Notes: generated by a model not told the origin, from the sequence alone. Shown: positions 3,625-33,446, counted from the first letter of the stretch. The stretch is DNA of 64,000 nt from Dehalococcoidales bacterium (GCA_020342155.1 CP070842.1:1172594-1236593), one strand, 5' to 3'. Made by a program: numbers and translations.

Positions 3625-4881
3625 ATGGATTTTGCACTTAGCGAAGACCAGGAAATGCTAAAAACTATGGCCCGCGATTTCCTGGAGAAGGAATGCCCTG
3701 AGGTCATGGTCAGGCAGATAGAGACCGATGAGAGAGGCTACTCCCCAGAGCTATGGCGCCAGATAGCAGAACTGGGCTGGCTGGGAATCAGTATTCCTGA
3801 GGAATATGGGGGTACCGGTGGTGACGCGATAGACCTGATGGTCCTTCACGAAGAAATTGGGAGAGCGTTATTCCCCAGCCCTCACCTATCCACCGTGGTG
3901 CTCTGTGGGCACACTATCCTGGATGTTGGCAGTACGGAGCAGAAGCAGGAGTTACTGCCCAAGATAGTCAACGGAGAACTGATTCTGGCAATGGCCTTGA
4001 CCGAACCCGAATCCAGTTGGGACGGTAAGGCCTGGGACCCCGAAGGAGTAACTGTCAAGGCAGCTCCTGATGGCGATGACTATGTCATCGATGGTATCAA
4101 GTTGTTCGTCCATGATGCTCACATTGCTGATTACCTGCTATGTGTGGCTAGGACCAAGGATGACGGACCACCTGAGGAAGGGATAACCCTGTTTCTGGTA
4201 GACGCCAAAAGTCCTGGGATTAGCTATGAGCTACTGGATACCCTGGCCAACCGGAACAAGCAATGCGAGGTCGTTTTCGACAAGGTAAAGGTCCCCAAGT
4301 CAAACATCGTCGGTGAATTGAACGGCGGATGGGCACCCTTATTCAAGTCTATCACGACAGGGGCAGTATTGCTGTGCGCCCAGATGGTCGGTGCTGGTCA
4401 TCGAATCCAGGAGTTGACGGTTGATTACGCCAAGACCAGAATACAGTTCGATATGCCTATCGGCATTAACCAGCATGTCCAGGAGCATTGTGTCCAGCTT
4501 GTTATCCGCCAGGATGCTTGCCGGTATGCGACCCAGTATGCAGCCTGGGCGCTTGGCCAGCCGGGGCAGGACATGGAGGTAGCCATGGCCAAGGCCTGGT
4601 GCAGCGAAGCCTTCGAGCATATCTGCTGGCGCGCCCACCAGGTTTTTGCCGGTGTCGGCACCATGGCAGTACTCCACATTATGCCTATGTATACCAGGAG
4701 GGGAATCGTCATGGAGCACTATCTGGGCGACACTCCATTCTGGCTGGAGAAGGTAGCACTGGAGATGGAGAAATTGCCTCTCCACCAGAAGACTAAAGGG
4801 AAACCGCTCGGTCTCTGGGACCCCGATAGGAAACAGGTGCCAGTCTGGGATATCTGGCGAGAGTACGCCGAGAGTTTATAA
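3625..4881 (+). CDS. Acyl-CoA dehydrogenase family protein (second subunit-like paralogue)
   Basis: 418 aa. ACAD pattern (MALTEPESSWD, IDGIKLFV, VGAGHRIQELTVDYAKTRIQF). Lies 44 nt after the first ACAD. Confidence 0.9.
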   Translation: MDFALSEDQEMLKTMARDFLEKECPEVMVRQIETDERGYSPELWRQIAELGWLGISIPEEYGGTGGDAIDLMVLHEEIGRALFPSPHLSTVVLCGHTILDVGSTEQKQELLPKIVNGELILAMALTEPESSWDGKAWDPEGVTVKAAPDGDDYVIDGIKLFVHDAHIADYLLCVARTKDDGPPEEGITLFLVDAKSPGISYELLDTLANRNKQCEVVFDKVKVPKSNIVGELNGGWAPLFKSITTGAVLLCAQMVGAGHRIQELTVDYAKTRIQFDMPIGINQHVQEHCVQLVIRQDACRYATQYAAWALGQPGQDMEVAMAKAWCSEAFEHICWRAHQVFAGVGTMAVLHIMPMYTRRGIVMEHYLGDTPFWLEKVALEMEKLPLHQKTKGKPLGLWDPDRKQVPVWDIWREYAESL

Positions 4882-4969: not shown

Positions 4970-4983
4970 TGGTGGAACTGGGG
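4970..4983. repeat. Direct repeat of the tRNA-Ala 3' terminus (putative distal att site)
   Basis: TGGTGGAACTGGGG here versus TGGTGGAGCTGGGG at 10164-10177 (13/14). Both copies are preceded by CCCC. Confidence 0.6.
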
Positions 4984-5213
4984 CATCAGGAGGAAGAATT
5001 CTCATAGTGACATCCTAGTAGTTAGTTACCTCACAGTTTACTAGAATGTCGAGTTGCTTATTAAGTCAATGTTGAATATCACCGCAAGCTTGGAAAATCA
5101 AAGTAGACGATTGAGTGATTGAACGAATAAGAGATATCTATCCAGCCGTTTTAATAGCTATTCCATGCCGTAACTCTTACTTAAATTGTCGTATTCTTTG
5201 TTTGAGCAGGTCA

Positions 5214-5630
5214 CTAGCGAATTCCTGTATCAATCTCAATATCTAATTTAAAAGTGATACCAGACTTTATTTCCACCTGTTTAGGCACATCATCACTATA
5301 ATCGATACCTATGCTGTTAATATCAACTGTATAAATACCAGGTTCCAGTTCTACTCTGTATCTGGTGTAGTTCTCTTCTTGATTGCATTCAATGTCCACT
5401 TGCATTACTAGCTCGGTACCACTCTTGTCGTAAATCATTATTTTTCTGGCATCGTAAATATCGCATCGAAGGACTGCATCCTGACCTGGTTGCTCAACCG
5501 GTGTTATGGGACCGATGAGCACATTTCCCTGCAAGAGTCCTTTTTCGTCTGTACTAGAACATCCAACAAAAAATAATCCCAGTACTATTATTGCTACTAA
5601 AAGTATATTTAGCTTCATTCGTTTAGCCAA
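5214..5630 (-). CDS. Hypothetical lipoprotein
   Basis: 138 aa. Signal peptide with lipobox (LFFVGC|SS). Confidence 0.75.
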   Translation of the reverse strand: MAKRMKLNILLVAIIVLGLFFVGCSSTDEKGLLQGNVLIGPITPVEQPGQDAVLRCDIYDARKIMIYDKSGTELVMQVDIECNQEENYTRYRVELEPGIYTVDINSIGIDYSDDVPKQVEIKSGITFKLDIEIDTGIR

Positions 5631-5694
5631 TTATTACTATGCCCATCTTTTCCAGAATATCTCGGGGTATAGTATCAAATAATCACACTTCTAT

Positions 5695-6648
5695 TTAGTC
5701 ATCGTATGTGATCAGTTCTACGTCTATTTCACTAACGTAAACAAGGTTCATACCAAGGGTGAAAAGGAAACCATCCTGAACATTCTGTATAAATCGGATC
5801 GGGCCAACTTCATCATCGAAACGGGCAATGACCTGCTGTTGCCCCTCACTAAAAAAGTTGATACCAGCCATTGGTTTTATGAGAATCATGTCGAGAGAAA
5901 TGATTGCAGGGACATACTGAGGCTCGACATATGTCTTCTCCATATAGTCAGCGGCGATATAAAACTCCATTGTTTCCACGCTAGTCGGAGCGGAAGGATC
6001 AGATATATTGATAGTAAAATACGCTTTTCCATCCGTAACGTAATCTAGCTGAACTGCAAACCCGTTGTAGGCCTGACCTACAGTTAGACCGGTATTACTA
6101 TCTATTATGGGTATCGCCCTCAGATCCGATGATACTACATATGCATTGTGTGTATTCTGAGAATGCAGAATCCTATCCCTATTCAGTCTCTCTATATCCG
6201 CTTCTACTAGCAAAGCTCCTCCCTGAGGAAGGATACTACCATCGTCATAGATCACCCAGGTAGGCCTGTTGAACGAAGCAAAATGCTCATCAAAATCAGC
6301 GTTAAACCACAGGGCATTATTAAATGCTTCACTGGCATTAGATGGCCACCTGTCGACTATATATTTATACGCTTCAAGATTTTCGTGACGCTCGACAAAG
6401 TCGCCTTCTGCTAAAGATGGGAACAGTATCCCTATATATTCTTTAGCCTCGGGTGTTTGAGCCATATCAATCAACCTGGCTACTACCACCAGCTGAGCCT
6501 CATCATCCGTAAAAACCACATCTGATGTATTTGTACTACAAGCTGTGGTAGACAGTACGGTCACCAGCAGCACCACTAGAACACCCAGAGCAGTGCGCCA
6601 CCAGGAGCTTCGAAGATATTTGTTCATGAGTCGTCCTCTTTTCGTCAA
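5695..6648 (-). CDS. Hypothetical lipoprotein
   Basis: 317 aa. Hydrophobic N-terminal segment followed by TTAC|S lipobox-like cysteine. Confidence 0.75.
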   Translation of the reverse strand: MTKRGRLMNKYLRSSWWRTALGVLVVLLVTVLSTTACSTNTSDVVFTDDEAQLVVVARLIDMAQTPEAKEYIGILFPSLAEGDFVERHENLEAYKYIVDRWPSNASEAFNNALWFNADFDEHFASFNRPTWVIYDDGSILPQGGALLVEADIERLNRDRILHSQNTHNAYVVSSDLRAIPIIDSNTGLTVGQAYNGFAVQLDYVTDGKAYFTINISDPSAPTSVETMEFYIAADYMEKTYVEPQYVPAIISLDMILIKPMAGINFFSEGQQQVIARFDDEVGPIRFIQNVQDGFLFTLGMNLVYVSEIDVELITYDD

Positions 6649-6893
6649 TATACTAACTCGCCTGGACCTATTACCCGCCGGCTAATTCTCAGTTTACCTT
6701 GAGTAGAGACCACGTTCTCCAACAATTCCTTTAACCTCTTACCAAACAGCTTCCGATGTCGCCGGACAATAAGCTTTAGCAGAACGGCATCAGAAGGGTT
6801 TTCTTCGAGTACATGGAAATTAGCCCCAATACCACAATCAGTAGAGTTTCCTCTTGATCGAGTTACATAAACAAGATTATTCAACTCATCCAA
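6645..6893 (-). CDS. Small basic hypothetical protein (uncertain)
   Basis: 82-aa ORF bridging two larger genes with 4- and 13-nt overlaps. No recognisable motif. Confidence 0.3.
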   Translation of the reverse strand: MDELNNLVYVTRSRGNSTDCGIGANFHVLEENPSDAVLLKLIVRRHRKLFGKRLKELLENVVSTQGKLRISRRVIGPGELVY

Positions 6894-8719
6894 GTTGGAC
6901 CGACACGACCAGTAATCTCCCAGGATCCATCAACATCTTCAAGGACATATGTTGTGCCACCTGCAGCTAGATTCGCTATGTAAATGCTTCCTGCCACTTG
7001 GACTGAGCCGTCTTTTTTCAGGTAGATATTTCCCAATGTAATGATCGCCCTACCACGTTTCACTTCAAGATTAGATTGTTCAAATTCGGCATCTCCAAAC
7101 CTGTTAACCCATACAATATCTATGTTTAGGTCGCTTATCATTCTGGAAATCTCATCTTGCATGGTCTCTGTAATCATATGTGTATTTGATGGTTGGCCTT
7201 CAACTGTATTCCCGGCACTATCGTCCGTGCTCTTGATAACGTAAAGAGTGTCAGGATTAAGATTTCCCCCGAATGTATCATCTTCTGTCGCAAGCTGCCG
7301 TATTACAGCAGCATAGATAGCTGTTTCATCTTGTATTGGTAAACTAGTTTGAATCTGTTGACCTGCGAACTGTGTGCCTAGAACGGTCTCAAGTGCTTCT
7401 GTTACCGCCAAGTTTTCACCGACGTATAGCGCGATTATTCTACCAGCTTGATAAAAATGGGGTGGAGCAACCCAAAACGGCATACTGGTACCTATATAAC
7501 TACCATCAGTTGATACAAGCACCGCCTCCTCTTCGGCTGCTGCCTGAACGCTGTACTCGAAGACCTGAACTTCCTCCCCATTCACTTTAAATACCTGTCC
7601 TGTGACCGAGAAGAAGTCCTGAACTATTACTTGCGGTAACGTTTCATGCTCAACTGTAGCTCCGGCCGAACGAAGGCTATCTACGAGGCTATCATAGTCT
7701 ATCAACGATCTAACTAATACCTCTTCAGCTTTTACTTGTGCCGGATATGATTCCATGACAGGCCCTTTAAACCATACTTCTACGGTTTGCCCGTTTTGTA
7801 ATGCACCAAACGCTACCGTGTAATGATCCTGCCCGTTATATTCATAGATCGGTGTATTCTTCTCAATGGTCACCCAGAATTTGTCTGAGGTGTTATTTGG
7901 TTGTTCCAGTTCCACAAGTATTCGCCCGTCTATGGTTTCACTGCAGACAGGATCGATTTCTGTGATGATCCCGGTAATATCGGATTCTTCTCGGAGTATA
8001 ACATTATCAGGATCTATGGGATCGGAAAATTCCTCTTGATTTATCATATCCCATACGTTATCAATTGAGGCATACGCTATTTCTCCCTGTTCAACTGCAA
8101 TAGATAATTCGTGAGGGGTTATCACTTCAGCAAGCATATTACCAGTACGGTCACCATAACCTGCGTGTGCACTCTCAAACTCAATAACAAACATCCAAGT
8201 GAGTGGAATAGAGACTTCAATACTGTCAACTAGCTCTAAAGTATCTTCAATACCATCAAATACATAGGTGGGACTACTCCTAACAAAGTCAAGGGCTATT
8301 TGTTCACTCCCTTCTTTTGTTACTTGCTCCAGAGCCCTAACCTCAGTCACAGTACCTTCAGTATCTACGTTTCCTTCCCAATACCAGCCGGATTCCATAT
8401 TCAGAAGGACCACATCAAAAACCATATTCTCAGCGAGGACTATGGGATAGGAAACCTGTATCATCCACAGGTCTGAGATAAACTCTATAGTCTCTGATCC
8501 GATCAATCCTTCAGGAGTAGTGTTATATTCCTGCCATATTAAACCTGTACCTGGCACGTTATCAGTATATCGATTTTCTAGATACGACAACGCAGCGTCT
8601 CGAGCCTCACTGGCATTTTGAACATTACCAGGTTGATTGGTGAAACCTACCATGACAGATAAAGTGAGTATCGCTGCACTTAATGGTAATACTATCGAGA
8701 ATAGTTTTTGCTTCAGCAA
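6881..8719 (-). CDS. Large secreted or membrane-anchored hypothetical protein
   Basis: 612 aa with an N-terminal signal/anchor (LFSIVLPLSAAILTLSVMVGF). No motif recognised. Confidence 0.8.
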   Translation of the reverse strand: MLKQKLFSIVLPLSAAILTLSVMVGFTNQPGNVQNASEARDAALSYLENRYTDNVPGTGLIWQEYNTTPEGLIGSETIEFISDLWMIQVSYPIVLAENMVFDVVLLNMESGWYWEGNVDTEGTVTEVRALEQVTKEGSEQIALDFVRSSPTYVFDGIEDTLELVDSIEVSIPLTWMFVIEFESAHAGYGDRTGNMLAEVITPHELSIAVEQGEIAYASIDNVWDMINQEEFSDPIDPDNVILREESDITGIITEIDPVCSETIDGRILVELEQPNNTSDKFWVTIEKNTPIYEYNGQDHYTVAFGALQNGQTVEVWFKGPVMESYPAQVKAEEVLVRSLIDYDSLVDSLRSAGATVEHETLPQVIVQDFFSVTGQVFKVNGEEVQVFEYSVQAAAEEEAVLVSTDGSYIGTSMPFWVAPPHFYQAGRIIALYVGENLAVTEALETVLGTQFAGQQIQTSLPIQDETAIYAAVIRQLATEDDTFGGNLNPDTLYVIKSTDDSAGNTVEGQPSNTHMITETMQDEISRMISDLNIDIVWVNRFGDAEFEQSNLEVKRGRAIITLGNIYLKKDGSVQVAGSIYIANLAAGGTTYVLEDVDGSWEITGRVGPTWMS

Positions 8720-9188
8720 TTGGCCCCCCGTTATTTACTTTCTTTCCATTTTTCCCGTAATGTCACTTCTTCTACTTATACGATACAATAGTAGAAAGTA
8801 TCACAACTTCTAACTGTTGCATCACATATTTTGTGGTTATAAACAACTTTGAATAGAAGCTGGCTGTGTCGATATTGATTCTATTCTGCCTTCTACTTCA
8901 GACTAATATATTCTTGTAACCTTTTTATGTAACTCTAGTCACTCTTGTTTTGATATTTGCATTTAATTGCATGCAATTATCGTTTCTTGACAACAGTTAC
9001 CGTCAGGAAATAATACTACATTTCTTTTCATCCATAGACGAATAGCGTTACAAGATAAACAAATATTCCGGTATTTAATCGATGATAACAATCTGACTTA
9101 TTGTTATGTGGACTGAGGCTGCACAATACATCTTGTTGTTACTGCACAATCAGCCATAAGGTAAGATCTCAAGAACTAGCACGTGCGA

Positions 9189-9217
9189 TTGACACTGGAA
9201 GATTCCGGCCCTAGAAT
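9189..9217 (+). promoter_or_regulatory. Candidate sigma70-type promoter
   Basis: TTGACA (9189-9194), a 17-nt spacer, then TAGAAT (9212-9217). Confidence 0.5.
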
Positions 9218-9294
9218 TGGTACGAAGTCAAATACTCAGTATAAACAGGTTTCTTTGTTCACATTCGGTGCTGTGGCAACAAGGGGGAATGCAG

Positions 9295-9861
9295 ATGGAT
9301 ATTGTACTTGGTCGACTTACAGAAGCATCTGTTGAATATCAGAATGAGTATATAGTCTCTTTTGGTACTAACGGGCGTCTCATTATTCGATACTGGGTAT
9401 TCCGTAAGAGGGAAGAGCAATCGGAGGATGATTCATCAGAATATGTGGAAAAGGTTCCTCCTACGGGGCTCGCTATCACATTGAACGGACAACGCTACGC
9501 TTATCTTGAGAACTCATTCGTCAAGAATGCTATGCAGTATTACCACTTTATCCCAGATACGATGTTTGTCCAGGCGGAGTGCGGTCTTCTGTCTGAAAGA
9601 CGTAGGAAAGAGCTCGTTCGTACCACTCAGTCGGGCGTTCCGATTGATAAAAAGACACTGGAACTCATTGAAACGGTGCTGCGAGATATAGTAACTGTGG
9701 ATGTGGAACTATTCGGCTTGGAGCGTAAGAGGATACGTAAAACACTTGTCGAATCGACCATAAATCCATCACTTAAACGGTTGGACCGCAAGAGGGCACG
9801 AAAAGTACTTATCAAACTCAATGCTGACGAATTAGAGGCAGCACGCTGCCCGGGGGACTAA
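9295..9861 (+). CDS. Hypothetical protein
   Basis: The track ORF starts at TTG 9217, which overlaps the -10 box. ATG 9295 follows the RBS AAGGGGGAA (9281-9289). No family recognised. Confidence 0.6.
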   Translation: MDIVLGRLTEASVEYQNEYIVSFGTNGRLIIRYWVFRKREEQSEDDSSEYVEKVPPTGLAITLNGQRYAYLENSFVKNAMQYYHFIPDTMFVQAECGLLSERRRKELVRTTQSGVPIDKKTLELIETVLRDIVTVDVELFGLERKRIRKTLVESTINPSLKRLDRKRARKVLIKLNADELEAARCPGD

Positions 9862-9950
9862 CAGTTAGCATTAGCCGGTCTCTTTCCATGACGCGCTATG
9901 TCGACCACCAGGAGTTCATGATATATCCAAAGGGCATGCAATCTATTTAT

Positions 9951-10160
9951 TTAATACAACCGAATGCAATGAATAGTATGATTGCACTTTCCGATGTTTT
10001 GTTCAGCAGCTGAGGTTATAGCCAATCGTACAGGCACCACCATATCCGCGCTGATAAACCTGCTTATAGCCAGGTCATAGTAACGGGCGTCGTAGTAGTA
10101 CAGGCCGGTGCCACCAGACGGGAAAAGGAGAGAGTCGCTTGGAGTTCTGCCTATTGTCAC
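9951..10160 (-). pseudogene. RHS-repeat-associated core (tip) fragment
   Basis: GTGLYYYDARYYDLAISRFISAD matches the RHS core signature (G.YYY.ARYYD...GRFiS.D). Only 69 codons remain, starting 4 nt from the tRNA-Ala 3' end, and no YD-repeat body is present. Confidence 0.6.
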
Positions 10161-10163
10161 CCC

Positions 10164-10239
10164 TGGTGGAGCTGGGGGGATTCGAACCCCCTACCTATTG
10201 AATGCCATTCAATCGCTCTCCCAATTGAGCTACAGCCCC
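10164..10239 (-). tRNA. tRNA-Ala (anticodon GGC), CCA encoded
   Basis: Cloverleaf folded by hand: GGGGCTG/TA/GCTC/AATTGGGA/GAGC/G/ATTGA/ATGGCAT/TCAAT/AGGTA/GGGGG/TTCGAAT/CCCCC/CAGCTCC/ACCA. The G3:U70 alanine identity pair is present. Confidence 0.95.
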
Positions 10240-26467: not shown

Positions 26468-27316
26468 CTAGAGTACGAACTTCTCCACTGCGGCGGCCAC
26501 GCCGTTGTGCTCGACATCGGGAACAATATGGTCGGCCACGGCCTTCAACTCCTCATGGGCATTACCGACAGCAATCGCCAACCCGGCCGTTGACAACAAC
26601 GAGATGTCATTGGTACCATCACCGATAGCCACAACCTGAGACAGCGGTATCCCCAGAAACGCAACCAGCTCCTCCAGGGCCCTGCCTTTGGACACCTCAC
26701 GGCTGATAATATTCACAAAGTCCGCATCCGGATAGACCGGTGTCTTTGCCCACGTGAAGTTTAGACGGCCCTCAAAGTATCGGCAGAAAAGGTGGGCTTG
26801 CGCCTTCTCTTCCTCGGAGCGTATCACCAGTGTCCCCTTAATAATCCGCTGCCGCTGCCAGAGCTGGTTCAAGTCCGTGACGGTCGGTTCGAGCCCGAAG
26901 AACTCGCGGCGTATTTCGGTCCCCCAGTCTTCCTGCTTGACGAACAAATGCATAGACGAAAAGAGTTCGATCCTCATTTCCTGCTGATAAGCGAACTCGG
27001 CCATCTCCTTCACCAGTTCCGGTGCTACCGGTTCAACGTAGACCTCTTTATCACCATGAGTGTCGGACACCAGGGCACCATCGAAGAAGACATGATATCC
27101 ATCAAGCGAAAGTAACTCAAGAGTCTTCTGACAGGCCTGAGTCACCCGTCCCGTTGACAGGGAGACCTGGACACCTGCCTGTCTGGCACTGGCCAGTGCC
27201 TGCCTGTCCGCGTCAGAAATAACACCGGCCTGGTTTATCAGCGTACCATCAATATCCACAACCAGGAGATGGGGGCGGTCTGTCAAGCCTTTTTCCTCCA
27301 CATTCTTCAATAGCAA
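26468..27316 (-). CDS. Cof-type HAD-IIB family hydrolase
   Basis: 282 aa. VVDIDGTL motif I, STGR motif II and GDGTNDISLL motif IV. Confidence 0.85.
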   Translation of the reverse strand: MLLKNVEEKGLTDRPHLLVVDIDGTLINQAGVISDADRQALASARQAGVQVSLSTGRVTQACQKTLELLSLDGYHVFFDGALVSDTHGDKEVYVEPVAPELVKEMAEFAYQQEMRIELFSSMHLFVKQEDWGTEIRREFFGLEPTVTDLNQLWQRQRIIKGTLVIRSEEEKAQAHLFCRYFEGRLNFTWAKTPVYPDADFVNIISREVSKGRALEELVAFLGIPLSQVVAIGDGTNDISLLSTAGLAIAVGNAHEELKAVADHIVPDVEHNGVAAAVEKFVL

Positions 27317-27342: not shown

Positions 27343-27372
27343 TTGACGGGCAGGTTCTGACTATGCTATATT
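27343..27372 (+). promoter_or_regulatory. Candidate promoter for tRNA-Met
   Basis: TTGACG (27343-27348), an 18-nt spacer, then an extended -10 TGCTATATT (27364-27372). The tRNA 5' end lies 11 nt downstream. Confidence 0.5.
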
Positions 27373-27382
27373 TGACCCGCAT

Positions 27383-27455
27383 GGCAGCGTAGCTCAGTTG
27401 GTAGAGCAGAGGACTCATAAGCCTCGGGTCGTGGGTTCGAATCCCTCCGCTGCCA
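27383..27455 (+). tRNA. tRNA with CAU anticodon (elongator Met or Ile2), CCA not encoded
   Basis: Hand fold: GGCAGCG/TA/GCTC/AGTTGGTA/GAGC/A/GAGGA/CTCATAA/GCCTC/GGGTC/GTGGG/TTCGAAT/CCCTC/CGCTGCC/A. G1:C72 argues against an initiator. Two non-Watson-Crick pairs: A31-G39 and U50-U64. Confidence 0.9.
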
Positions 27456-27492
27456 GTTTTTATTTCGCCTGGCTAACACCAAATTATAGCAT
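27430..27492 (+). repeat. Repeat copy A: tRNA-Met T-arm/acceptor 3' part plus 3' flank (the functional gene end)
   Basis: CGTGGGTTCGAATCCCTCCGCTGCCAGTTTTTATTTCGCCTGGCTAACACCAAATTATAGCAT. Confidence 0.8.
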
Positions 27493-27538
27493 AACACCAG
27501 ACTTCGAGACGGCTTTCAATAAGAGGGATGAGTTAGAA

Positions 27539-28447
27539 ATGAGTATAATAACTTTTGCAACCATGTCCACCCAGAATAACCTCACGCGAGCCATTATATT
27601 ATTTGACAGCCTGCGAACGTTTGGCGGCGAACTTGCGGATTCTCATTGTATTATGCTTATCTCAGAGAAGGGAGAGCCTTTACCCGATAAAACAAGAGAG
27701 CAACTTAGTGCGCTAGATGTTAACCTAGTACATTTTGATATGGACAAGGGAGCCTTACGGTTTCCACTCGCTTCGCTGGTGTATGCCGCAGCCAGAGCAG
27801 AGCAGCAGGTACGGGATGAAACCGAAATATTGGTCTGGATGAATGAGGACACTCTGATAGTTAACCCGCCAGTGGGCTTTCTACTCGAAGAAGGTGTTAA
27901 TTTTGCGTATAGACCGGTACACCATACCAGGATTGGCTCAGTATACGATAAGCCCCTAGATGATTTCTGGTCAATGATATATCAGCACTGCGGTGTTACT
28001 GGAATAAATGCATTTCCGATGGAAACCTGCACTAGGGATAATGTCATCAGAGCATACTTCAACGCTGGTTTACTTGCTGTGAGACCGAAGCAGAGCCTCC
28101 TTGCGACATGGCTTGACTATTTTGAGCGACTATATCAGCATCCCGATTTTATACCATTCTTCAAGGATGACGTTCTTTATATGATATTCATGCACCAAGC
28201 AGTGCTATCAGGCGTTGTCCTGAGCATGTTTCAGAAAGACGAATTACTGGAACTCCCAGAGACCTTTAATTATCCACTCCATCTTCACCAAGAGTATCCT
28301 ATCGAATACCAACCTCAGGAACTTAATAATCTAATCACCTGCCGCTACGAAGGCATCGAAGATTTACGGAATTCCTTGAAGGCGATTCCAGCAGAAGAAC
28401 CCTTAAAAAGCTGGCTTGATGAGAGAATAGGGCTAACCGATATGTGA
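27539..28447 (+). CDS. Hypothetical protein, possibly a GT8-like nucleotide-diphospho-sugar transferase
   Basis: The track ORF (27398) reads through the tRNA, so ATG 27539 after AAGAGGGA is preferred. FNAGLLAVRP resembles the GT8 FN(S/A)G motif. The assignment is weak. Confidence 0.65.
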   Translation: MSIITFATMSTQNNLTRAIILFDSLRTFGGELADSHCIMLISEKGEPLPDKTREQLSALDVNLVHFDMDKGALRFPLASLVYAAARAEQQVRDETEILVWMNEDTLIVNPPVGFLLEEGVNFAYRPVHHTRIGSVYDKPLDDFWSMIYQHCGVTGINAFPMETCTRDNVIRAYFNAGLLAVRPKQSLLATWLDYFERLYQHPDFIPFFKDDVLYMIFMHQAVLSGVVLSMFQKDELLELPETFNYPLHLHQEYPIEYQPQELNNLITCRYEGIEDLRNSLKAIPAEEPLKSWLDERIGLTDM

Positions 28448-28452
28448 TAGCT

Positions 28453-28509
28453 TGTTTCCATCCTATGCTACCTTTCATTTCTTACCAAAGTACCTGCTTG
28501 ATTACAACA
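28453..28509 (+). repeat. Repeat copy B (degenerate)
   Basis: GTTTCCATCCTATGCTACCTTTCATTTCTTACCAAAGTACCTGCTTGATTACAACAT aligns to copy D (...GCTGCCAGTTTTTATTTCTCACCTAAGCACCTGCCTGATTATAGCAT). Confidence 0.55.
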
Positions 28510-28683
28510 TTACCTATGCGAATTGATCCGAACGCCTACACAATAAAAAGACTAGTAGAAATTTAGCGACCTGCTAGCCCAGTCACCTGTAGTGTCAGTA
28601 CTGGTATTCTACTCCGGAAAATTAACGTAATTAATTGTATAATGTGGAAAACAGAAATTTGCTTGAGGTGGGGGGAAGTAATA

Positions 28684-28875
28684 ATGTCTGAAATGAAGCA
28701 AACAATTCTTGAATCGTGGCCAGCCTTAAAAGAAAATTTGGGTAGTTTCTTATCTGACACAGACGCCTGGATAATTGCTGAGCTTAAGACTGCACATCAA
28801 GCTAAGGACTGGGAAACAGTATCCAAAATCATAGAGGTAATGGAATTTGTGCACGACATGCACCATTCACATTAA
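28684..28875 (+). CDS. Small hypothetical protein (63 aa)
   Basis: ATG 28684 is preceded by GAGGTGGGGGGAAG. No family recognised. Confidence 0.45.
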   Translation: MSEMKQTILESWPALKENLGSFLSDTDAWIIAELKTAHQAKDWETVSKIIEVMEFVHDMHHSH

Positions 28876-28901
28876 CTAAGCATGGCCCTCATACATTTAG
28901 T

Positions 28902-28964
28902 CGTGGGGTCGAATCCCTCCGCTGCCACTGCCTAGATTTCCCATGCCACCACCAGATTATTTCA
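28902..28964 (+). repeat. Repeat copy C
   Basis: CGTGGGGTCGAATCCCTCCGCTGCCACTGCCTAGATTTCCCATGCCACCACCAGATTATTTCA. Similarity may extend back to CTCATA at 28888-28893, the anticodon loop. Confidence 0.7.
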
Positions 28965-29714
28965 AACAGAGTCGATTCGCTTCCGCATTCTACTCCATGT
29001 GTTTGTAATGAGGAAACTCTCCTCCATGTTGTCAATCATCCGGGTGAATTTGCTAATAGGTACTGATAACGTTATTACATCCGGTGGTACAAAGGGCCTT
29101 GCCGAAGGATCGAACATGCCAACTATTGCCTTAGGATGCTCTGAGTCCTTTTCAAGGTAGGGATACTGCACAATAGTGGAACAGCCAGAACCAAATGGAG
29201 CGGACACCGCATTTCTATCAACTTCATCAAATCGGGCAAGGGTGAAGAGTCCTGATAGAACGTCAGGTTTCGCATAAAAAATGACAACTTCTGGATTATC
29301 TGATTCCTCTAACCTGTCCCATCTCTTGAACACTATAAACCGACCTGGTGCTTGAAATGTTGGCGTGTTCTTCATTATCTCCTTAACAAGCTCCGGTGAT
29401 TTACAGTAACGTTCGCCCTCCAGTCTTCCCGGAATCCCATAGGAGAGGAAATATTCAAAACCAGGCATGATACCCTCAGCAAATCCAAGATATCTTTTCC
29501 CTCCAGGACAACCGATCGAGTCTGCGTCAAAATATAGAGAATTCCCTTTCCTCACATCCGTTAACGCACCAATCACACACCTAGACACAGACTCTGGCTC
29601 AACCGACTGCGCATGTCCTTCCTCATCCGTGTAATAGAAAGTAATGGGTAGTTCGGCACCACCAAAGTACTTGCTCCAAAGCCGGGTGAATGTGTCCCTG
29701 GTATGCATGTCCAT
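28962..29714 (-). CDS. DUF169-family protein
   Basis: 250 aa. Typical DUF169 pattern (ITFYYTDE...CVIGAL...GCPGGKRYLGF). Confidence 0.85.
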   Translation of the reverse strand: MDMHTRDTFTRLWSKYFGGAELPITFYYTDEEGHAQSVEPESVSRCVIGALTDVRKGNSLYFDADSIGCPGGKRYLGFAEGIMPGFEYFLSYGIPGRLEGERYCKSPELVKEIMKNTPTFQAPGRFIVFKRWDRLEESDNPEVVIFYAKPDVLSGLFTLARFDEVDRNAVSAPFGSGCSTIVQYPYLEKDSEHPKAIVGMFDPSARPFVPPDVITLSVPISKFTRMIDNMEESFLITNTWSRMRKRIDSV

Positions 29715-29752
29715 TGAACACCTCCTCGATTATGAATGAGTCAGTAAAAAGG

Positions 29753-29854
29753 GGAAATGGTAAAGCAGCCTCTCGCTTTCCCACTTATCGGTAGTTCGAA
29801 TCCCTCCGCTGCCAGTTTTTATTTCTCACCTAAGCACCTGCCTGATTATAGCAT
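29753..29854 (+). repeat. Repeat copy D (extended; near full-length pseudo-tRNA plus flank)
   Basis: GGAAATGGTAAAGCAGCCTCTCGCTTTCCCACTTATCGGTAGTTCGAATCCCTCCGCTGCCAGTTTTTATTTCTCACCTAAGCACCTGCCTGATTATAGCAT. Confidence 0.75.
29845..29853 (-). promoter_or_regulatory. Extended -10 (TGCTATAAT on the minus strand) inside repeat D
   Basis: Plus-strand ATTATAGCA, about 130 nt upstream of the DUF169 start on the minus strand. Confidence 0.35.
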
Positions 29855-29933
29855 ATCGTTTAGCTTATACATTTCTCGATAACTGCTAACAACTGCTACA
29901 ATAATCTTATTACACAAGGGAGGTAAGAGACCA

Positions 29934-30500
29934 ATGGAAGCGAAGATAACCTATTTCGAAACCCCGGGTAGAGATAACACAGATGCTGTAATGGAGATTG
30001 TAAAGCAGCGTGCTCAGGAACTCGAAATCGAGACGGTTGTTGTCGCATCATATCGTGGCTACACTGCTGAAAAGGCAGTACGTGCGCTTGACGGTATGAA
30101 AATAGTTGTTATCGCCGGATTTCCACATCCAACAATGGATAACCTGGAGGAAACCTTTGCACAGGGTGACGAGAAACTTATCAAGGATAAGGCTACAGTA
30201 CTTATTGCCACACATTTTTTCTCCGGGATGAGTCGCGCAATACGGAAAAAGTACAACTCTTCAAGCCCTGAGGAACTTGTTGCTCAGGCATTAAGAATGA
30301 TGTGTAGCGGTGTAAAGGTCGGTATTGAGTGCACAATCATGGCTGCTGATGCAGGCTTGGTACGTACTGACGAGGATATTATCGCCATTGCCGGTACAGG
30401 TAGTGGTGCCGATGCAGCTATCTTGGTTAGACCTGTAAACTCACAGGACTTCTTTGACCTCAAGGTGAAAGAGATACTGTGCAAGCCGCGGAACTGGTGA
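29934..30500 (+). CDS. Pyruvate kinase alpha/beta (C-terminal) domain-like protein
   Basis: 188 aa. The pattern YFETPGRDNT...VVVASYRGYTA...IAIAGTG is typical of stand-alone PK_C-like proteins. Confidence 0.8.
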   Translation: MEAKITYFETPGRDNTDAVMEIVKQRAQELEIETVVVASYRGYTAEKAVRALDGMKIVVIAGFPHPTMDNLEETFAQGDEKLIKDKATVLIATHFFSGMSRAIRKKYNSSSPEELVAQALRMMCSGVKVGIECTIMAADAGLVRTDEDIIAIAGTGSGADAAILVRPVNSQDFFDLKVKEILCKPRNW

Positions 30501-30508
30501 TATGTAGA

Positions 30509-30608
30509 GGAAATGATTAAACAGCTTCTCACTTTATCACTAATCGGTAGTTCGAATCCCTCCGCTACCAGTATTTTATTTTACCTAAGTACACCATCTG
30601 AAAATTAA
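30509..30608 (+). repeat. Repeat copy E (extended, like D)
   Basis: GGAAATGATTAAACAGCTTCTCACTTTATCACTAATCGGTAGTTCGAATCCCTCCGCTACCAGTATTTTATTTTACCTAAGTACACCATCTGAAAATTAACT. About 80-85% identical to D by eye. Confidence 0.75.
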
Positions 30609-31064
30609 CTAAGGAATTGACTTAGCCAGTTGTTCTCCCAGAGCTCTGCATGTTTGCAGAATCTGTTCATCCGGCTTACCTCTAGAACCGACTGGTTCCC
30701 CAATTAATGTGCCTACACGCCTGAAAATACGCTCCATTGCGTCTTTTACCCTGCCACCACCGCCATGTGAGTAGAAGAGTATATAGGGTTTCTCTCTAAG
30801 TCCATCCAGTCCATCGCGTACATCAGCAATATAATGATCGTCCATAAAGGTCTTGAGACCACCTGCTATATAGCTATAATAATCTGGTGAACCAAAGGCC
30901 ACGCAATCATACTGTGGGAATTGATTGACATCAAAACGCCCGTCATTCGTATTGAATGAATCGACCTCACATCCTGCTTCCCGTAGACCATCAGCGATTG
31001 CTTTAGCCATAGCTGCTGTATTACCATATTCCTGCGAATGATACAGAACAAGGGCTTTCGTCAT
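30609..31064 (-). CDS. Flavodoxin-like protein
   Basis: 151 aa. LVLYHSQEYGNTAAMA FMN-binding N-terminus. Confidence 0.85.
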   Translation of the reverse strand: MTKALVLYHSQEYGNTAAMAKAIADGLREAGCEVDSFNTNDGRFDVNQFPQYDCVAFGSPDYYSYIAGGLKTFMDDHYIADVRDGLDGLREKPYILFYSHGGGGRVKDAMERIFRRVGTLIGEPVGSRGKPDEQILQTCRALGEQLAKSIP

Positions 31065-31075
31065 TTCACACTCCT

Positions 31076-31107
31076 AATAATCCGAACCCCTCCGTTGTTA
31101 TTCACCC
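31076..31107 (+). repeat. Repeat copy F (short, degenerate)
   Basis: AATAATCCGAACCCCTCCGTTGTTATTCACCC resembles TAGTTCGAATCCCTCCGCTG..TT..ATTTC.CC with deletions. Confidence 0.4.
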
Positions 31108-31889
31108 TTAAAGACAGGGTCTCGCTTCTCCGTGAAGGAGCGTACACCCTCCCGAAAATCCTCCGTCTGGAAAAGTCGTCTCTGGGTGAGTACTGAGAAC
31201 TCCAGATTGGACTCGAAGTCTGAACTGAGCCCCAGGCGCATCTGTTTCTTGGCCATCTGAACAGCCAAAGGTGCATTGTTGGCAATCTTCATTGCCCATT
31301 CGCTGGTAGTCCGCTCGAGCTCTTCATGGGGTACTACCGTGTTCACTAAACCGATGCGCGCTGCCTCGTTGGCATCCATTCTTTCACCAAGGAACATAAT
31401 TTCGCAGGCCTTGGCCCAGCCGATCAGCCGTGGCAATAACCAGTGGCCTCCGTTATCGGGTACCAGCCCCCGCTTAACGTGCATGTCTCCCAGAACAGCC
31501 TTGTCTGAGGCTATCCTGATATCGCAGAGCTGGGCTAGCTCAAATCCCCATCCTATTGCCGGACCATTGATAGAAGCAATCGTCGGTTTGTCCAGTGAAA
31601 GCATGAGAGTGGGGAGGTTAGAACCACCAGTCCTGACTCTTCTCTCGGTTCCTTCTGAGCCGAGTCCCTGCCCACCAGCCTGAGCAGCCAGATCAAGTCC
31701 GGAACAGAAACCTCTGCCAGCACCGGTGATGACTATTACCCTGATCTCATTATCATCTCTCGCGTCCTCGATACCTGCCATGAGTCCTGATATCATCGAG
31801 CCTGTGAAAGCGTTAAGCCGATCAGGTCGATTCAATGTTAACGTAGCGACCGGTCCTTCCTTTGCATAGATAATGTCCTGTGATTCCAT
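31098..31889 (-). CDS. Enoyl-CoA hydratase/isomerase (crotonase) family protein
   Basis: 263 aa. VVITGAGRGFCSGLDL oxyanion-hole motif and GPAIGWGFELAQLCDIRIAS. Confidence 0.9.
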   Translation of the reverse strand: MESQDIIYAKEGPVATLTLNRPDRLNAFTGSMISGLMAGIEDARDDNEIRVIVITGAGRGFCSGLDLAAQAGGQGLGSEGTERRVRTGGSNLPTLMLSLDKPTIASINGPAIGWGFELAQLCDIRIASDKAVLGDMHVKRGLVPDNGGHWLLPRLIGWAKACEIMFLGERMDANEAARIGLVNTVVPHEELERTTSEWAMKIANNAPLAVQMAKKQMRLGLSSDFESNLEFSVLTQRRLFQTEDFREGVRSFTEKRDPVFKGE

Positions 31890-31942
31890 CGAATTCCTCC
31901 TCTGCTACTTTTTATTTCGCCACAACATCTGATTATAGCATG
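31890..31942 (+). repeat. Repeat copy G (terminal)
   Basis: CGAATTCCTCCTCTGCTACTTTTTATTTCGCCACAACATCTGATTATAGCAT. 29/33 identical to copy A across TCGAAT..ATTTCGCC. Confidence 0.75.
31932..31940 (-). promoter_or_regulatory. Extended -10 (TGCTATAAT on the minus strand) inside repeat G
   Basis: About 45 nt upstream of the crotonase ATG (31889). The antisense of the tRNA-like part supplies GAGGAGGAA 6 nt before that ATG. Confidence 0.4.
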
Positions 31943-32159
31943 CCACTGAACTGCCTCACATCTCGCTAAAAAAGGATTGAAAAGTGTGAAAACAGCAAGT
32001 ACGATAGTGTCAATTTCAAATGGCTCTCTGGTCTTAATATCATTCGGCTTTGCAATATTCTATGTACATAATCTCATAACGGAATTATTAATAGATCACT
32101 TACCCAGACTACTACGTCTGTGATATCCCCATTTGACACCAATCATCCTGTAGGTTAAT

Positions 32160-33446
32160 GTGAACGGGATGACTACCGATTCAGAACCACCAACCGCCTT
32201 CCAAGTAATACTAGAGCCAGGTGGAGTACAATGTAACCTTGCCTGCAGGTATTGCCCCTATCCGCCAGAAGAACGGCAGCAAAAAAAGAAACCCCTCCGC
32301 ATGACGAAAACCATCCTTAACACCTTCACCCGCCAGTACATCGAAGCCCAGCAGGTGCCGGAGGTAACCTTTAACTGGCAAGGGGGAGAGCCGCTCCTGA
32401 TGGGTCTCGAATTCTTCCAGCAGGCGGTCGATTTCCAGCTCCAATATCGACACCCCGAGATGGCAGTTTATAACACCGTGCAGACCAACGGCCTCCTACT
32501 CGACGACGAGTGGTGCCGCTTCTTCAAGGCAAATGGCTTCCTCGTCGTTATCGGCATCGACGGTCCGGAGGGCCTCCACGACACTACCCGAATCGATAGT
32601 AGCGGGCAACCCACGTTGGAGCGCGTCATGGCCGGGGTAGAGCTGTTGCACAAGTATGGTGTCGAGTTCAACACGTTGACCAATGTTCACCCAGGGAATG
32701 TCGACTCCCCCGTAGAAATATACCGGTTCCTCCGGGACGATGTTAAAGCTCGCTTCATGCAGTTCATCCCAGTCGTTAACCAGGAAGGAGAAAAGGTCAA
32801 AGAGGTCTCGGTAACGGGTCGGCAATACGGCGATTTCCTTAAGACAATCTTCAGCGAATGGGTGCGACGCGATGTCGGGACAGTCTCCGTGGATATCTTT
32901 GACGCTACCCTAGCTGCCTGGGCAGGGCAACCACCGGGCGTATGTATCTTTGAGGAGACCTGTGGTAAAGCCCTGCTTCTGGAGCACAACGGAGACCTCT
33001 ATGCCTGCGATTACTTCGTCGAACCACACCACTGTCTCGGCAGCATCAAGAATAAGAGACTGACTGAGATGGCCATCTCAGAGCAGCAAGTCCGGTTTGG
33101 TCTCGCCAAGCGTGATACTCTCCCTGTCCACTGCGTCGAGTGCCAGGTAAGGTTTGTCTGCCACGGCGGCTGTCTGAAAAACCGGTGCCTGCATACGCCT
33201 GACGGCGAACCGGGGCTGAACTACCTGTGCGAAGGATACCGGGACTTCTTCAGTTACGTCGGTCCGGCGATGATGTTCATGGTAGAGGAGCTACAAGCTG
33301 AACGTTCTCCCACCAATGTAATGTACCTCATCGCAGAGCAGGACGCCCTGTTGCAGCTGAGCTTCGCAGGTGCGAGAGTCAATGAGCCTTGCCCCTGTGG
33401 CAGCGGTCTCGAATTCAAGGACTGCCACGGACGCAAGGAGGCCTGA
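32160..33446 (+). CDS. Radical SAM/SPASM maturase, anaerobic sulfatase-maturating enzyme-like, with a C-terminal SEC-C motif
   Basis: 428 aa. CNLACRYC radical-SAM cluster, SPASM cysteines (CIFEETCG..., CVECQVRFVCHGGC) and the tail CPCGSGLEFKDCHG. Confidence 0.85.
   Translation: MNGMTTDSEPPTAFQVILEPGGVQCNLACRYCPYPPEERQQKKKPLRMTKTILNTFTRQYIEAQQVPEVTFNWQGGEPLLMGLEFFQQAVDFQLQYRHPEMAVYNTVQTNGLLLDDEWCRFFKANGFLVVIGIDGPEGLHDTTRIDSSGQPTLERVMAGVELLHKYGVEFNTLTNVHPGNVDSPVEIYRFLRDDVKARFMQFIPVVNQEGEKVKEVSVTGRQYGDFLKTIFSEWVRRDVGTVSVDIFDATLAAWAGQPPGVCIFEETCGKALLLEHNGDLYACDYFVEPHHCLGSIKNKRLTEMAISEQQVRFGLAKRDTLPVHCVECQVRFVCHGGCLKNRCLHTPDGEPGLNYLCEGYRDFFSYVGPAMMFMVEELQAERSPTNVMYLIAEQDALLQLSFAGARVNEPCPCGSGLEFKDCHGRKEA

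Follow-up and report, generated by a model that had tools for sequence, protein, structure and literature searches.

The window, the whole 64,000-nucleotide stretch of a Dehalococcoidales genome that was analysed, contains a tRNA-Met(CAT) gene called by both ARAGORN and Rfam at 27382/3–27455/6 on the plus strand, followed by an array of genes separated by partial copies of the tRNA 3′ end. The HAD hydrolase gene 5′ of tRNA-Met adjoins it in all related loci fetched, and a radical SAM gene with a transglutaminase gene closes the island in the related loci L094, L097, L098, L101 and L102. Between these borders, HAD/tRNA-Met on one side and radical SAM/transglutaminase on the other, the island measures 4.5 to ~18 kb across arrays.

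26468–27316, minus strand: Cof-type HAD hydrolase, conserved core gene and proximal anchor 5′ of tRNA-Met (Pfam Hydrolase_3, E = 5.6e-51)
27343–27372, plus strand: likely tRNA-Met promoter, TTGACG, 18 nt, TATATT, TG upstream (consensus scan, 10/12 matches with TG)
27383–27455, plus strand: tRNA-Met(CAT), intact attachment gene heading the array (ARAGORN; Rfam tRNA model 67.3 bits, E = 1.5e-13)
27437–27494, plus strand: unit A, the gene's own T-loop-to-3′-end core, T-rich run, spacer and AATTATAGCAT
27483–27491, minus strand: predicted extended −10 motif TGCTATAAT of unit A, leftward, antisense to the tRNA
27539–28447, plus strand: cassette 1, GT8-like GT-A glycosyltransferase-fold protein, 302 aa (AF2 model pLDDT 94; Foldseek)
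28453–28512, plus strand: unit B, core decayed, flank well preserved (41/54 identical to D; nhmmer E = 5.3e-7)
28684–28875, plus strand: cassette 2, 63-aa ORF (no family match)
28900–28969, plus strand: unit C, 0-mismatch core plus T-stem 5′ strand
28962–29714, minus strand: cassette 3, DUF169 protein, 250 aa (Pfam DUF169, E = 2.3e-35)
29750–29858, plus strand: unit D, long form, with ~45-nt left arm, 0-mismatch core and flank with intact promoter motif
29845–29853, minus strand: predicted extended −10 motif TGCTATAAT of unit D, positioned to drive DUF169
29934–30500, plus strand: cassette 4, PK_C-like protein, 188 aa (Pfam PK_C, E = 3.1e-9)
30506–30614, plus strand: unit E, long form, with left arm 85% identical to that of D, 1-mismatch core and degenerate flank motif
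30609–31064, minus strand: cassette 5, flavodoxin, 151 aa (Pfam Flavodoxin_1)
31082–31100, plus strand: unit F, decayed core with 5 mismatches, between flavodoxin start and hydratase stop (33-nt gap)
31098–31889, minus strand: cassette 6, enoyl-CoA hydratase/crotonase, 263 aa (Pfam ECH_1, E = 1.4e-63)
31889–31945, plus strand: unit G, 3-mismatch core abutting the hydratase start codon, then flank with intact promoter motif
31932–31940, minus strand: predicted extended −10 motif TGCTATAAT of unit G, 43 nt upstream of the hydratase start
32160–33446, plus strand: radical SAM/SPASM/SEC-C protein, conserved core gene at the distal island end (Pfam)

Each interval between units in the window array holds one gene, on either strand, in agreement with the original prediction (GT8-like, 63-aa ORF, DUF169, PK_C-like, flavodoxin and ECH_1). 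The 302-aa product of cassette 1 had no Pfam, NCBIfam or PDB sequence match; Foldseek searches with its predicted structure returned the UGGT catalytic domain, LgtC and glycogenin as best matches (E ~1e-8), and at the level of this model a GT8-like glycosyltransferase fold was confirmed. An ORF homologous to the 63-aa ORF is present in the L097 array (cluster c15), and the genes for flavodoxin and hydratase are probably transcribed leftward as a single operon. Composition is heterogeneous, as had been claimed, with 42–45% G+C at 28–31 kb and ~53% in the surroundings. The claim that the window lacks an integrase or transposase was likewise borne out: no integrase, transposase or serine recombinase was detected in the 64 kb in the sizeable ORFs covered by a Pfam/NCBIfam domain scan, and four ORFs at 19.4–24.8 kb were assigned only through synteny with annotated loci.

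All seven T-loop-to-3′-end copies, A–G, passed testing and every one lies on the tRNA strand. The 19-mer TCGAATCCCTCCGCTGCCA, which lies in the gene itself at 27437 (A), is repeated at 28909 (C), 29796 (D), 30552 (E) and 31889 (G), with 0 mismatches in C and D, 1 in E and 3 in G; these are five near-exact cores where chance predicts 0.04 matches per 64-kb window. Identity of G to A is 88% over 33 nt, the same as the 29/33 given earlier. Unit B aligned to D without gaps at 41/54 identical positions (score 28), compared with a mean of 7.1 and a maximum of 14 for 1876 random window segments. In C, the flank motif is degenerate and overlaps with the stop codon of DUF169. Unit F is not significant alone, as elsewhere in the window five other 5-mismatch matches occur by chance, besides one more in the homologous T-arm of tRNA-Ala (10167); the equivalent junction has clean cores with 1–2 mismatches in L005, L010 and L102. 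The similarity of B–G to the tRNA end, and with it the prediction of seven copies, is thus upheld by the 19-mer, a repeat profile, the alignment null and the orthologous junctions. Decay of several cores (B, F, G and the hydratase boundaries) indicates that not every site was kept functional.

Units D and E have in common a 71-nt unit, 85% identical between them and 66% identical, in register, to the tRNA. They had been taken for near full-length pseudo-tRNAs, a reading we rejected: neither was recognised as a tRNA even at E ≤ 10, no conserved single-strand fold of the repeat unit was found, and their left parts are a shared long arm that also stands at junctions with various genes in other genomes. 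The left arm of D accompanies DUF169 in the window array (WIN), L004, L005, L010, L011 and L101.

Ten further arrays, usually with the same core-gene borders, were found at the same tRNA-Met in related Dehalococcoidales genomes, giving 11 arrays at or derived from tRNA-Met. Those of the ten relatives carry 1 to ~12 cassettes. Single-ORF cassettes, as originally described, hold for the window array (0.4–1 kb single genes); in the relatives a cassette has 1–3 genes and reaches 5.6 kb. More than 25 cassette families occur over the 11 arrays, with boundaries 0–130 nt from gene ends; families common to arrays are GT8-like, DUF169, PK_C-like, flavodoxin, enoyl-CoA hydratase, PALP and MFS. In 124 kb, all 58 cores with ≤5 mismatches are on the tRNA strand and none on the other, and orientation is fixed per family: GT8-like 10/10 plus, DUF169 9/9 minus, hydratase 9/9 minus, PK_C 6/6 plus, flavodoxin 6/6 minus, PALP 5/5 plus and MFS 4/4 plus. 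GT8-like is the first cassette in 7 of the 11 arrays; DUF169 is present in nine (88–92% identity), PK_C-like in six, flavodoxin in six and in five different contexts, and the hydratase in eight, as the most distal repeat-bounded cassette wherever present. Order conflicts number at least four (PK_C/DUF169, flavodoxin/GT8-like, PALP/DUF169, and MFS first versus last), and these differences between arrays cannot be explained by loss alone. The relatives thus have overlapping gene sets in other orders with repeats present, rather than the same gene order without repeats. Scanning 185,579 species genomes for the unit gave six hits, only in five Dehalococcoidia MAGs; the unit occurs only downstream of tRNA-Met and always on the tRNA strand, which argues against a dispersed REP or MITE.

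Boundary mapping showed that a cassette retains its own flank and left arm whichever its neighbours, and that homology switches inside the core. Over 43 internal copies, per-base agreement with the tRNA is 80–90% from TCGAAT to the 3′ end and drops to 20–60% just left of it, the pattern expected for a crossover in the T-loop. L102 has two additional tRNA-proximal cassettes relative to L005, and its MFS cassette has a near-identical long-form unit on each side. Some events were evidently not site-specific, since L103 holds, at an unrelated junction, a core with a 45-nt remnant of the GT8-like 3′ end, and L094 has flavodoxin without cores. Between core and promoter motif the spacer is of at least three types, whose distribution is independent of the genes on either side; such mosaic units suggest exchange by homologous recombination or gene conversion and not a single fixed crossover point. 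A 50-nt 3′ fragment of the tRNA, apart from the intact gene, stands at the head of the W156 and L101 arrays, indicating that something large did recombine at tRNA-Met.

Cassette proteins are 74–92% identical between genomes and core genes 80–92%; being as diverged as core proteins, the cassettes have turned over slowly. No recent transfer is evident, and much of the pattern is accounted for by vertical inheritance with rearrangement. At four-fold sites orthologous cassette genes share only 56–65% identity, and many internal cores differ from the tRNA at 0–2 of 19 positions, so that the cores are maintained despite the divergence of the cassette genes. In L004 the tRNA has TTCGATTCC, whose T is also in the four proximal internal copies; the ancestral A is retained at the two distal hydratase boundaries.

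The shared ~40-nt flank described originally is real; most of it is a predicted leftward extended −10 promoter (TGCTATAAT) and not obviously a recombination arm. The motif TGNTATAAT occurs seven times in the 64-kb window against 1.6 expected, and three of the four occurrences outside the array sit 30–65 nt upstream of gene starts. Counted over all arrays, the promoter motif is present after the intact tRNA in 8/10 cases, with a minus-strand gene on the left in 11/24 and with a plus-strand gene on the left in 4/24; it is retained where a minus-strand gene stands to the left of the flank. The reverse complement of the unit G core, GGAGGAATTCGATG, is also the predicted ribosome-binding site of the hydratase gene. 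With a leftward promoter in the flank and GGAGG from the reverse complement of the tRNA remnant, the unit could supply expression signals to a left-hand minus-strand gene.

On balance, the array is probably an additive island anchored at tRNA-Met and made of mini-cassettes that have attP-like sites but no integrase, with recombination in trans and reshuffling through homologous recombination. We suggest that a cassette would insert as a circle bearing such a site, made up of an optional ~45-nt left arm, a tRNA copy from the T-loop to the 3′ end, a T-rich run and a short flank. A Campbell-type crossover around the T-loop would restore an intact tRNA, and the far end of the insert would be left with a 3′ piece of the tRNA; with the tRNA and the array's existing copies both serving as targets, repeated insertions could build a co-oriented array. 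Since the cassettes have no recombinase gene, the enzyme would have to act in trans; the likeliest candidate would be a tyrosine integrase that targets the T-loop, its gene being either at another place in the genome or on a visiting element. No recombinase was found within ~10 kb of any array locus, and in IMG/VR no virus had the site as attP. Homologous recombination and gene conversion between the 25–110-nt repeats would add deletions, duplications, permutations and homogenisation.

These latter processes might have sufficed. On a possible but doubtful alternative account, the repeats are fossil att sites of a few ancient integrations, since when only RecA-dependent loop-out, Campbell re-insertion, unequal crossing-over and gene conversion have acted, with no dedicated recombinase today. 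The lack of a recombinase near any array, the mosaic units with spacers independent of both neighbours, the T variant homogenised in L004 and the similar divergence of cassettes and core all agree with it, as do order differences that resemble circular permutations (PK_C–PALP...DUF169 versus DUF169...PK_C–PALP) and the GT8-like remnant in L103, which implies duplication and then deletion. Homologous recombination, however, cannot make new junctions of unrelated genes with tRNA fragments, which more than 25 families have, and the shared block begins sharply at the T-loop in most copies. In many units, moreover, the well-matched stretch is only ~20–25 nt long, near the lower limit for RecA-dependent exchange.

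The original prediction left a choice between a cassette array and eroded serial integrations, the latter meaning multi-kb integrase-bearing elements (prophages, islands or tycheposon-like) that entered at tRNA-Met and were deleted down to 1–3 cargo genes. Dehalococcoidia genomes are streamlined, in keeping with such erosion, and the 50-nt tRNA fragment away from the intact tRNA in W156 and L101 points the same way. Accretion in tandem at tRNA genes, along with partial tRNA repeats and degraded elements, is also known in Prochlorococcus (10.1101/2020.12.28.424599) and Alteromonas (PMC4898812). Yet random deletion would rarely spare both att copies every time, and in the 11 arrays more than 25 families have both boundaries 0–130 nt from gene ends, with no integrase, excisionase or replication-gene fragments inside; one small cassette also recurs, boundaries unchanged, in differing contexts. 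The comparative data favour a cassette array, whose recombination step we infer, over erosion of large elements, which we regard as improbable. Very improbable, in our judgement, is a promoter/ribosome-binding-site module or MITE-like element that duplicated itself into gaps between genes in an ordinary variable region as regulatory punctuation, not a recombination site. The predicted promoter retained with a minus-strand gene on the left, the Shine–Dalgarno sequence that the tRNA remnant gives the hydratase gene and the recurrence of the unit beside different neighbours speak for it; but 58/58 copies are co-oriented with the tRNA and downstream of it or its 3′ fragment, with none elsewhere in the window, and there are only the six hits in 185,579 genomes. 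Half of the units, besides, have no promoter, they have neither terminal inverted repeats nor target duplications, and cassette content, besides the units, varies at exactly these points.

Neither form had been thought described at this unit size. The kind is known: tRNA-anchored additive islands with partial tRNA repeats have been described with larger units and usually with integrases, as the additive flexible genomic islands of Alteromonas (PMC4898812) and the Prochlorococcus islands built by tycheposons (10.1101/2020.12.28.424599). Like these, the array is a hotspot 3′ of a tRNA gene that relatives have at the corresponding site with differing cassette combinations; newcomers displace older cassettes outward, and partial tRNAs occur throughout the island. 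Those islands consist of multi-gene modules that are near-identical across species, whereas here a unit is one gene of 0.4–1 kb (in relatives at most 3 genes or 5.6 kb), a tRNA fragment lies at almost every gene junction, no integrase or remnant is in or beside any of the 11 arrays, and the cassette proteins have diverged as far as the core genome.

In streptococcal ICE/IME systems, CIMEs (cis-mobilizable elements) reportedly accrete at tRNA or other att sites. They too are att-flanked segments without recombination functions, in tandem arrays with related elements, which a related integrase reportedly moves in trans, as proposed here; unlike these kb-scale decay products beside a cognate ICE/IME, the units here are gene-sized and numerous, with no cognate element seen. 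In the same bacterial class, the tandem ssrA islands of Dehalococcoides are said to stack at a small-RNA gene with direct repeats of its 3′ end between them, but these are multi-kb, each with its own integrase and rdhA operon, and the array here is at tRNA-Met.

An integron comprises IntI, attI and an array of attC cassettes, attC being an imperfect palindrome, with a single Pc promoter at the platform. Here no integrase gene is adjacent, the repeat is a tRNA 3′ fragment without a conserved hairpin, genes lie on either strand, and promoters are predicted within the repeat units. The small variable island nevertheless looks like an integron-style cassette array: its cassettes are mostly single-gene and recombinase-less, a short repeated site marks their boundaries at one fixed chromosomal platform, and relatives differ in their order and content but not in how they are oriented to the sites.

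The repeat core, TCGAATCCCTCCGCTGCCA, equals the final 19 nt of tRNA-Met and recurs along the array on the tRNA strand; the intact gene and the copies with a recognizable core are as follows.

tRNA-Met and core copies in the window
27383–27455, + strand: tRNA-Met(CAT), head of the array
27437, + strand: copy A, the tRNA gene's own 3′ end, core with 0 mismatches
28909, + strand: copy C, core with 0 mismatches
29796, + strand: copy D, core with 0 mismatches
30552, + strand: copy E, core with 1 mismatch
31889, + strand: copy G, core with 3 mismatches

In shuffled sequence 0.04 such core matches are expected by chance. The core of copy B is decayed, and its alignment to D (41 of 54 positions match) scores 28, where the null reached 14 at most. 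Together, the near-exact same-strand cores and the alignment of B bear out the original prediction of a tRNA-Met followed by repeats of its own 3′ end. Copy F, predicted as short and degenerate, has five mismatches and is not significant alone; we accept it on position, as it lies inside a 33-nt intergenic gap, precisely where three other genomes have clean cores in the equivalent junction. ORF and domain analysis of the window confirmed one gene per interval (GT8-like, a 63-aa ORF (orf63), DUF169, PK_C-like, flavodoxin and enoyl-CoA hydratase (ECH)), and the heterogeneous composition was likewise confirmed, with a G+C content of 42–45% in the array versus ~53% in its surroundings.

Units D and E share a 71-nt unit at 85% identity, the left part of which is a ~45-nt long arm, GGTAAAGCAGCYTCTCGCTTTCYCACTTATCG. 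The same arm stands at junctions with different left-hand genes in three related loci (L094, L097 and L102) and retains some in-register similarity to the tRNA D-arm (TGGTAAAGCAG versus TGGTAGAGCAG). D and E had been read as near full-length pseudo-tRNAs. That reading fell: at E ≤ 10 the Rfam tRNA model detected the intact gene in the window and neither D nor E, and RNAalifold on seven long-form units plus the tRNA gave −0.48 kcal/mol with essentially no covariation, which rules out tRNA pseudogenes with a consensus structure and leaves the in-register similarity.

The locus was traced in relatives through the HAD gene 5′ of tRNA-Met, the DUF169 and GT8-like proteins, a DNA-pattern scan and a repeat-unit profile, four routes that in combination yielded 10 further arrays. 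Covering 185,579 species genomes, the DNA-pattern scan gave six matches, all in Dehalococcoidia metagenome-assembled genomes (MAGs) and all of this locus type. HAD adjoins tRNA-Met in all loci. Where both ends are readable, the island is limited by HAD/tRNA-Met and by the core radical-SAM and transglutaminase genes, with the W156/L101 lineage as the exception, and its size ranges from 4.5 kb in the window to ~18 kb in L094. More distant relatives (including L016 and L017) have the tRNA and flank and no array, and the tRNA-Met of W156 is not directly followed by one; in lineages further removed still, DUF169 stands as an ordinary gene beside tyrS, without repeats. Among the matches listed in a HAD-profile metagenome scan, L014–L024 were relevant and none added an array, and an exact look-up of the PK_C-like protein in public assemblies gave no match. 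A 1.17-kb DUF169 contig, considered as a sign of cassette circles, stops at the left unit and is not circular.

In L011 (3510–5510) and L101 (9800–11900), of the W156 lineage, an array with GT8-like, DUF169 and further cassettes lies away from the intact tRNA-Met. At its head stands a ~50-nt tRNA-Met 3′ fragment that starts at the anticodon stem, and it lies beside the core genes carB and nrpR; the intact tRNA-Met with its unit flank lies >10 kb from the array, and after it, beyond 0.9 kb of AT-rich non-coding DNA, comes an aldehyde:ferredoxin oxidoreductase gene. This layout suggests a large rearrangement or insertion via the tRNA, with another crossover point. In L103 (3880–4564, locus coordinates) the HAD gene by tRNA-Met is called as fragments of 33 and 177 aa, suggesting a pseudogene.

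The arrays total 124 kb, in which all 58 cores with ≤5 mismatches are on the tRNA strand and none on the opposite one, and each cassette family keeps a single orientation relative to the tRNA, while cassette order varies.

Orientation of cassette families relative to tRNA-Met
GT8-like: 10/10 on +
DUF169: 9/9 on −
Hydratase (ECH): 9/9 on −
PK_C-like: 6/6 on +
Flavodoxin: 6/6 on −
PALP: 5/5 on +
MFS: 4/4 on +

Cassette order in the window and three related loci
Window: GT8, orf63, DUF169, PK_C, flavodoxin, ECH
L005: flavodoxin, 2TM, GT8, HD, orf63, OmdA, DUF169, Fer4, PK_C
L010: GT8, PALP, 2TM, flavodoxin, DUF169, ECH, MFS
L094: GT8, PadR-64aa-MTase, PK_C, PALP, hydrolase-ABC-DUF169, ECH

Cassette order conflicts in at least four pairwise comparisons, which rules out simple differential loss, or loss-only evolution from a single ancestral order. 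Nor do relatives carry the same genes in the same order without repeats, as a stable ancestral region would: the 11 arrays share families, conflict in order and have the repeats. When the same cassette is aligned across contexts, it brings along the flank that follows its left core and the arm that precedes its right core, and similarity to the neighbours changes over within the core. A set of 43 internal copies matches the tRNA at 80–90% per base between TCGAAT and the 3′ end, and agreement drops steeply to the left. Integrases that cross over in the T-loop leave an identity block of such shape.

Cassette proteins are 74–92% identical between genomes, core neighbours 80–92% and the fast-evolving HAD protein 54–86%. 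As the cassette identities are like those of core proteins, recent horizontal transfer of cassettes is unsupported, and cassette turnover is slow. At four-fold degenerate sites, orthologous cassette genes are 56–65% identical; many internal cores are 0–2 of 19 positions off the tRNA, and the most distal (hydratase) boundaries are decayed. The cores are thus maintained despite diverged cassette genes. The tRNA of L004 has TTCGATTCC in place of TTCGAATCC, with the T common to its four proximal internal copies and the A kept at the two hydratase boundaries, a case of concerted evolution after the split from the other genomes. Compared with L005, L102 has two additional tRNA-proximal cassettes, and its MFS cassette has a near-identical long-form unit on each side; both are signs of insertion beside the tRNA.

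The units are mosaics, in which spacer types assort independently of both neighbours. In the L103 array (4105–4170), a 45-nt GT8-like 3′ remnant plus core lies at an unrelated junction, between a second hydratase gene and a hydrolase gene. The array also has an intact GT8-like cassette 2 kb further upstream, which is evidence that a duplication was followed by deletion. In L094 (2175–2630, locus coordinates) the orthologous flavodoxin (85% identity) lies directly by the radical-SAM gene with no tRNA-like core on either side, so that it either occupies its ancestral position or has lost both boundaries. From the mosaic units, the L103 remnant and the core-less flavodoxin, we therefore conclude that homologous recombination and deletion also shape the arrays.

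The conserved flank, GATTATAGCAT, reads on the opposite strand as TGCTATAAT, a predicted perfect extended −10 promoter. The motif TGNTATAAT has seven copies in the window versus 1.6 expected; four of these are outside the array, three of them 30–65 nt upstream of gene starts.

Extended −10 motifs (TGNTATAAT) upstream of genes outside the array
14786: upstream of a VTT-domain gene
50079: upstream of ligA
55208: upstream of a PNP_UDP_1 gene

Promoters of this type thus seem to be common in the genome. Across arrays, the motif follows the intact tRNA-Met in 8 of 10 cases and occurs in 11 of 24 units with a minus-strand left neighbour, versus 4 of 24 with a plus-strand one; motif-less units with a minus-strand left gene are mostly junctions where the right gene is also on the minus strand. 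A two-hexamer scan reported no two-hexamer promoter in the flank, where the extended −10 stands alone. The core of unit G directly abuts the hydratase start codon, so that on the gene strand the tRNA remnant reads GGAGGAATTCGATG and supplies the ribosome-binding site. With the promoter motif, this makes the flank largely an expression signal. Just past tRNA-Met itself, a perfect extended −10 (27483–27491, − strand) is directed back into the tRNA. This tRNA-antisense promoter is kept after 8 of 10 tRNA-Met genes examined, among them those of L001 (no array directly at tRNA-Met) and L009 (a single cassette); it would give an RNA antisense to the tRNA that continues toward the HAD operon.

No recombinase domain (Phage_integrase included) was found in the sizeable window ORFs scanned, and to that extent the predicted absence of integrases and transposases from the window held; four ORFs at 19.4–24.8 kb were identified by synteny only. 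Neither the called genes within 10 kb of the 10 related arrays included a recombinase, nor did any cassette of the 11 arrays hold an integrase or remnant. The sole mobile-element gene seen near any array is an IS110-family transposase gene in L004 (20282–20792), on the HAD side of tRNA-Met at a distance of ~10 kb. IMG/VR yielded no cognate element; an exact 19-mer scan there for a phage or plasmid attP returned one contig, L013 (IMGVR_UViG_3300037339_000563), a phage 12-tRNA cluster whose own tRNA-Met (336–409) ends in the 19-nt core. The match is a tRNA sequence coincidence and not an attP. The first cassette was considered as a hidden recombinase: the GT8-like protein (27539–28447) has no Pfam, NCBIfam, PHROG or PDB sequence match, and its AF2 model (pLDDT 94) resembles the UGGT catalytic domain, LgtC and glycogenin (GT8/GT24-type GT-A). 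This confident GT-A glycosyltransferase fold therefore rules it out as the missing recombinase. Its unannotated family comprises ~440 proteins from Dehalococcoidia, Anaerolineae, Asgard archaea and Methanofastidiosia MAGs, a few of them fused to a Flavin_Reduct (PF01613) domain.

On balance, we favour an additive tRNA island of recombinase-less mini-cassettes with attP-like sites, served by a recombinase in trans and reshuffled by homologous recombination. Circular mini-cassettes would insert, Campbell-type, at the tRNA or at copies already present, through a crossover catalysed by an enzyme acting in trans, and would later be rearranged by homologous recombination. That recombination would act alone if the repeats were fossil att sites, a reading to which the mosaic units also lend themselves and which we regard as rather doubtful. 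The residue of eroded multi-kb elements would likewise leave tRNA 3′-end repeats; >25 compact cassette families and the absence of integrase remnants make this improbable. The promoter in the flank could instead mark a promoter- or MITE-like unit spreading by itself, but the unit is confined to a single locus and a single strand and is rare in genomes (six matches in 185,579), so it is not a dispersed REP/MITE, a family whose copies scatter in both orientations and carry terminal inverted repeats, and self-spreading is very improbable. Beyond the trans-served island that we favour, we tentatively raise a bolder possibility: a working gene-capture platform, evolved independently of integrons, in which the tRNA-Met T-loop-to-3′-end is both primary and cassette site, a dedicated recombinase elsewhere moves single-gene circles, and the unit doubles as an expression module (outward extended −10 plus a Shine–Dalgarno sequence from the tRNA remnant).

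Integrons are the textbook platform for stockpiling and reshuffling single-gene cassettes, and tRNA-side islands are usually viewed as graveyards of large integrated elements. Like an integron, the locus has an array of cassettes that lack a recombinase and differ in content and order from one relative to another (11 arrays); unlike one, it has no adjacent IntI-type tyrosine recombinase gene, no attC imperfect inverted repeats (R″-L″/L′-R′) with a single-strand hairpin, and genes on both strands. It works like an integron array but does not belong to the integrons. With additive tRNA islands it shares its position, the same in relatives, directly behind the 3′ end of a tRNA gene, inserts bounded by direct repeats of the tRNA 3′ part in a block that starts at the T-loop, deviant composition and variable presence among relatives, whereas no cassette here has an integrase or remnant. 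As in accretion of the cis-mobilizable element (CIME) type, att sites stand on both sides and recombination and transfer genes are absent inside. Prochlorococcus islands, built by tycheposons and with partial tRNAs scattered through them (10.1101/2020.12.28.424599), are among the closest known systems. Compared with these and with Alteromonas islands, units here are gene-sized, a repeat stands at almost every junction, and integrase and remnant are absent.

The locus therefore sits between integron and tRNA island, combining the address and repeats of the latter with an integron-like grain: one gene per unit, no internal recombinase, fixed orientation and shuffled order. Discovery of a trans recombinase would mean that cassette capture had more than one origin, in this case using an essential tRNA gene as its site; should there be no such enzyme, the array would illustrate how short att relics by themselves can keep accessory genes modular in a streamlined genome. 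In both cases the array offers a well-defined site, open to testing, in an uncultured lineage that is abundant in the environment and otherwise shows few mobile elements.

Last, the window holds a second tRNA-anchored island (4970–10239), at tRNA-Ala(GGC) (10164–10239, − strand). It has four sizeable ORFs (138, 317, 612 and 214 aa), of which the 612-aa ORF has the sole Pfam match, a weak one to DUF3221. None of the four has a PHROG match and an integrase is absent; the 214-aa ORF beside tRNA-Ala, considered as a small integrase, has no Pfam, NCBIfam or PHROGs match. Low-GC DNA (39–44%, 4984–10163) abuts the tRNA-Ala 3′ end, and at the far end of the island lies a 13/14 direct repeat of that 3′ end (CCCCAGTTCCACCA, 4970–4983), for which 0.02 occurrences are expected by chance.
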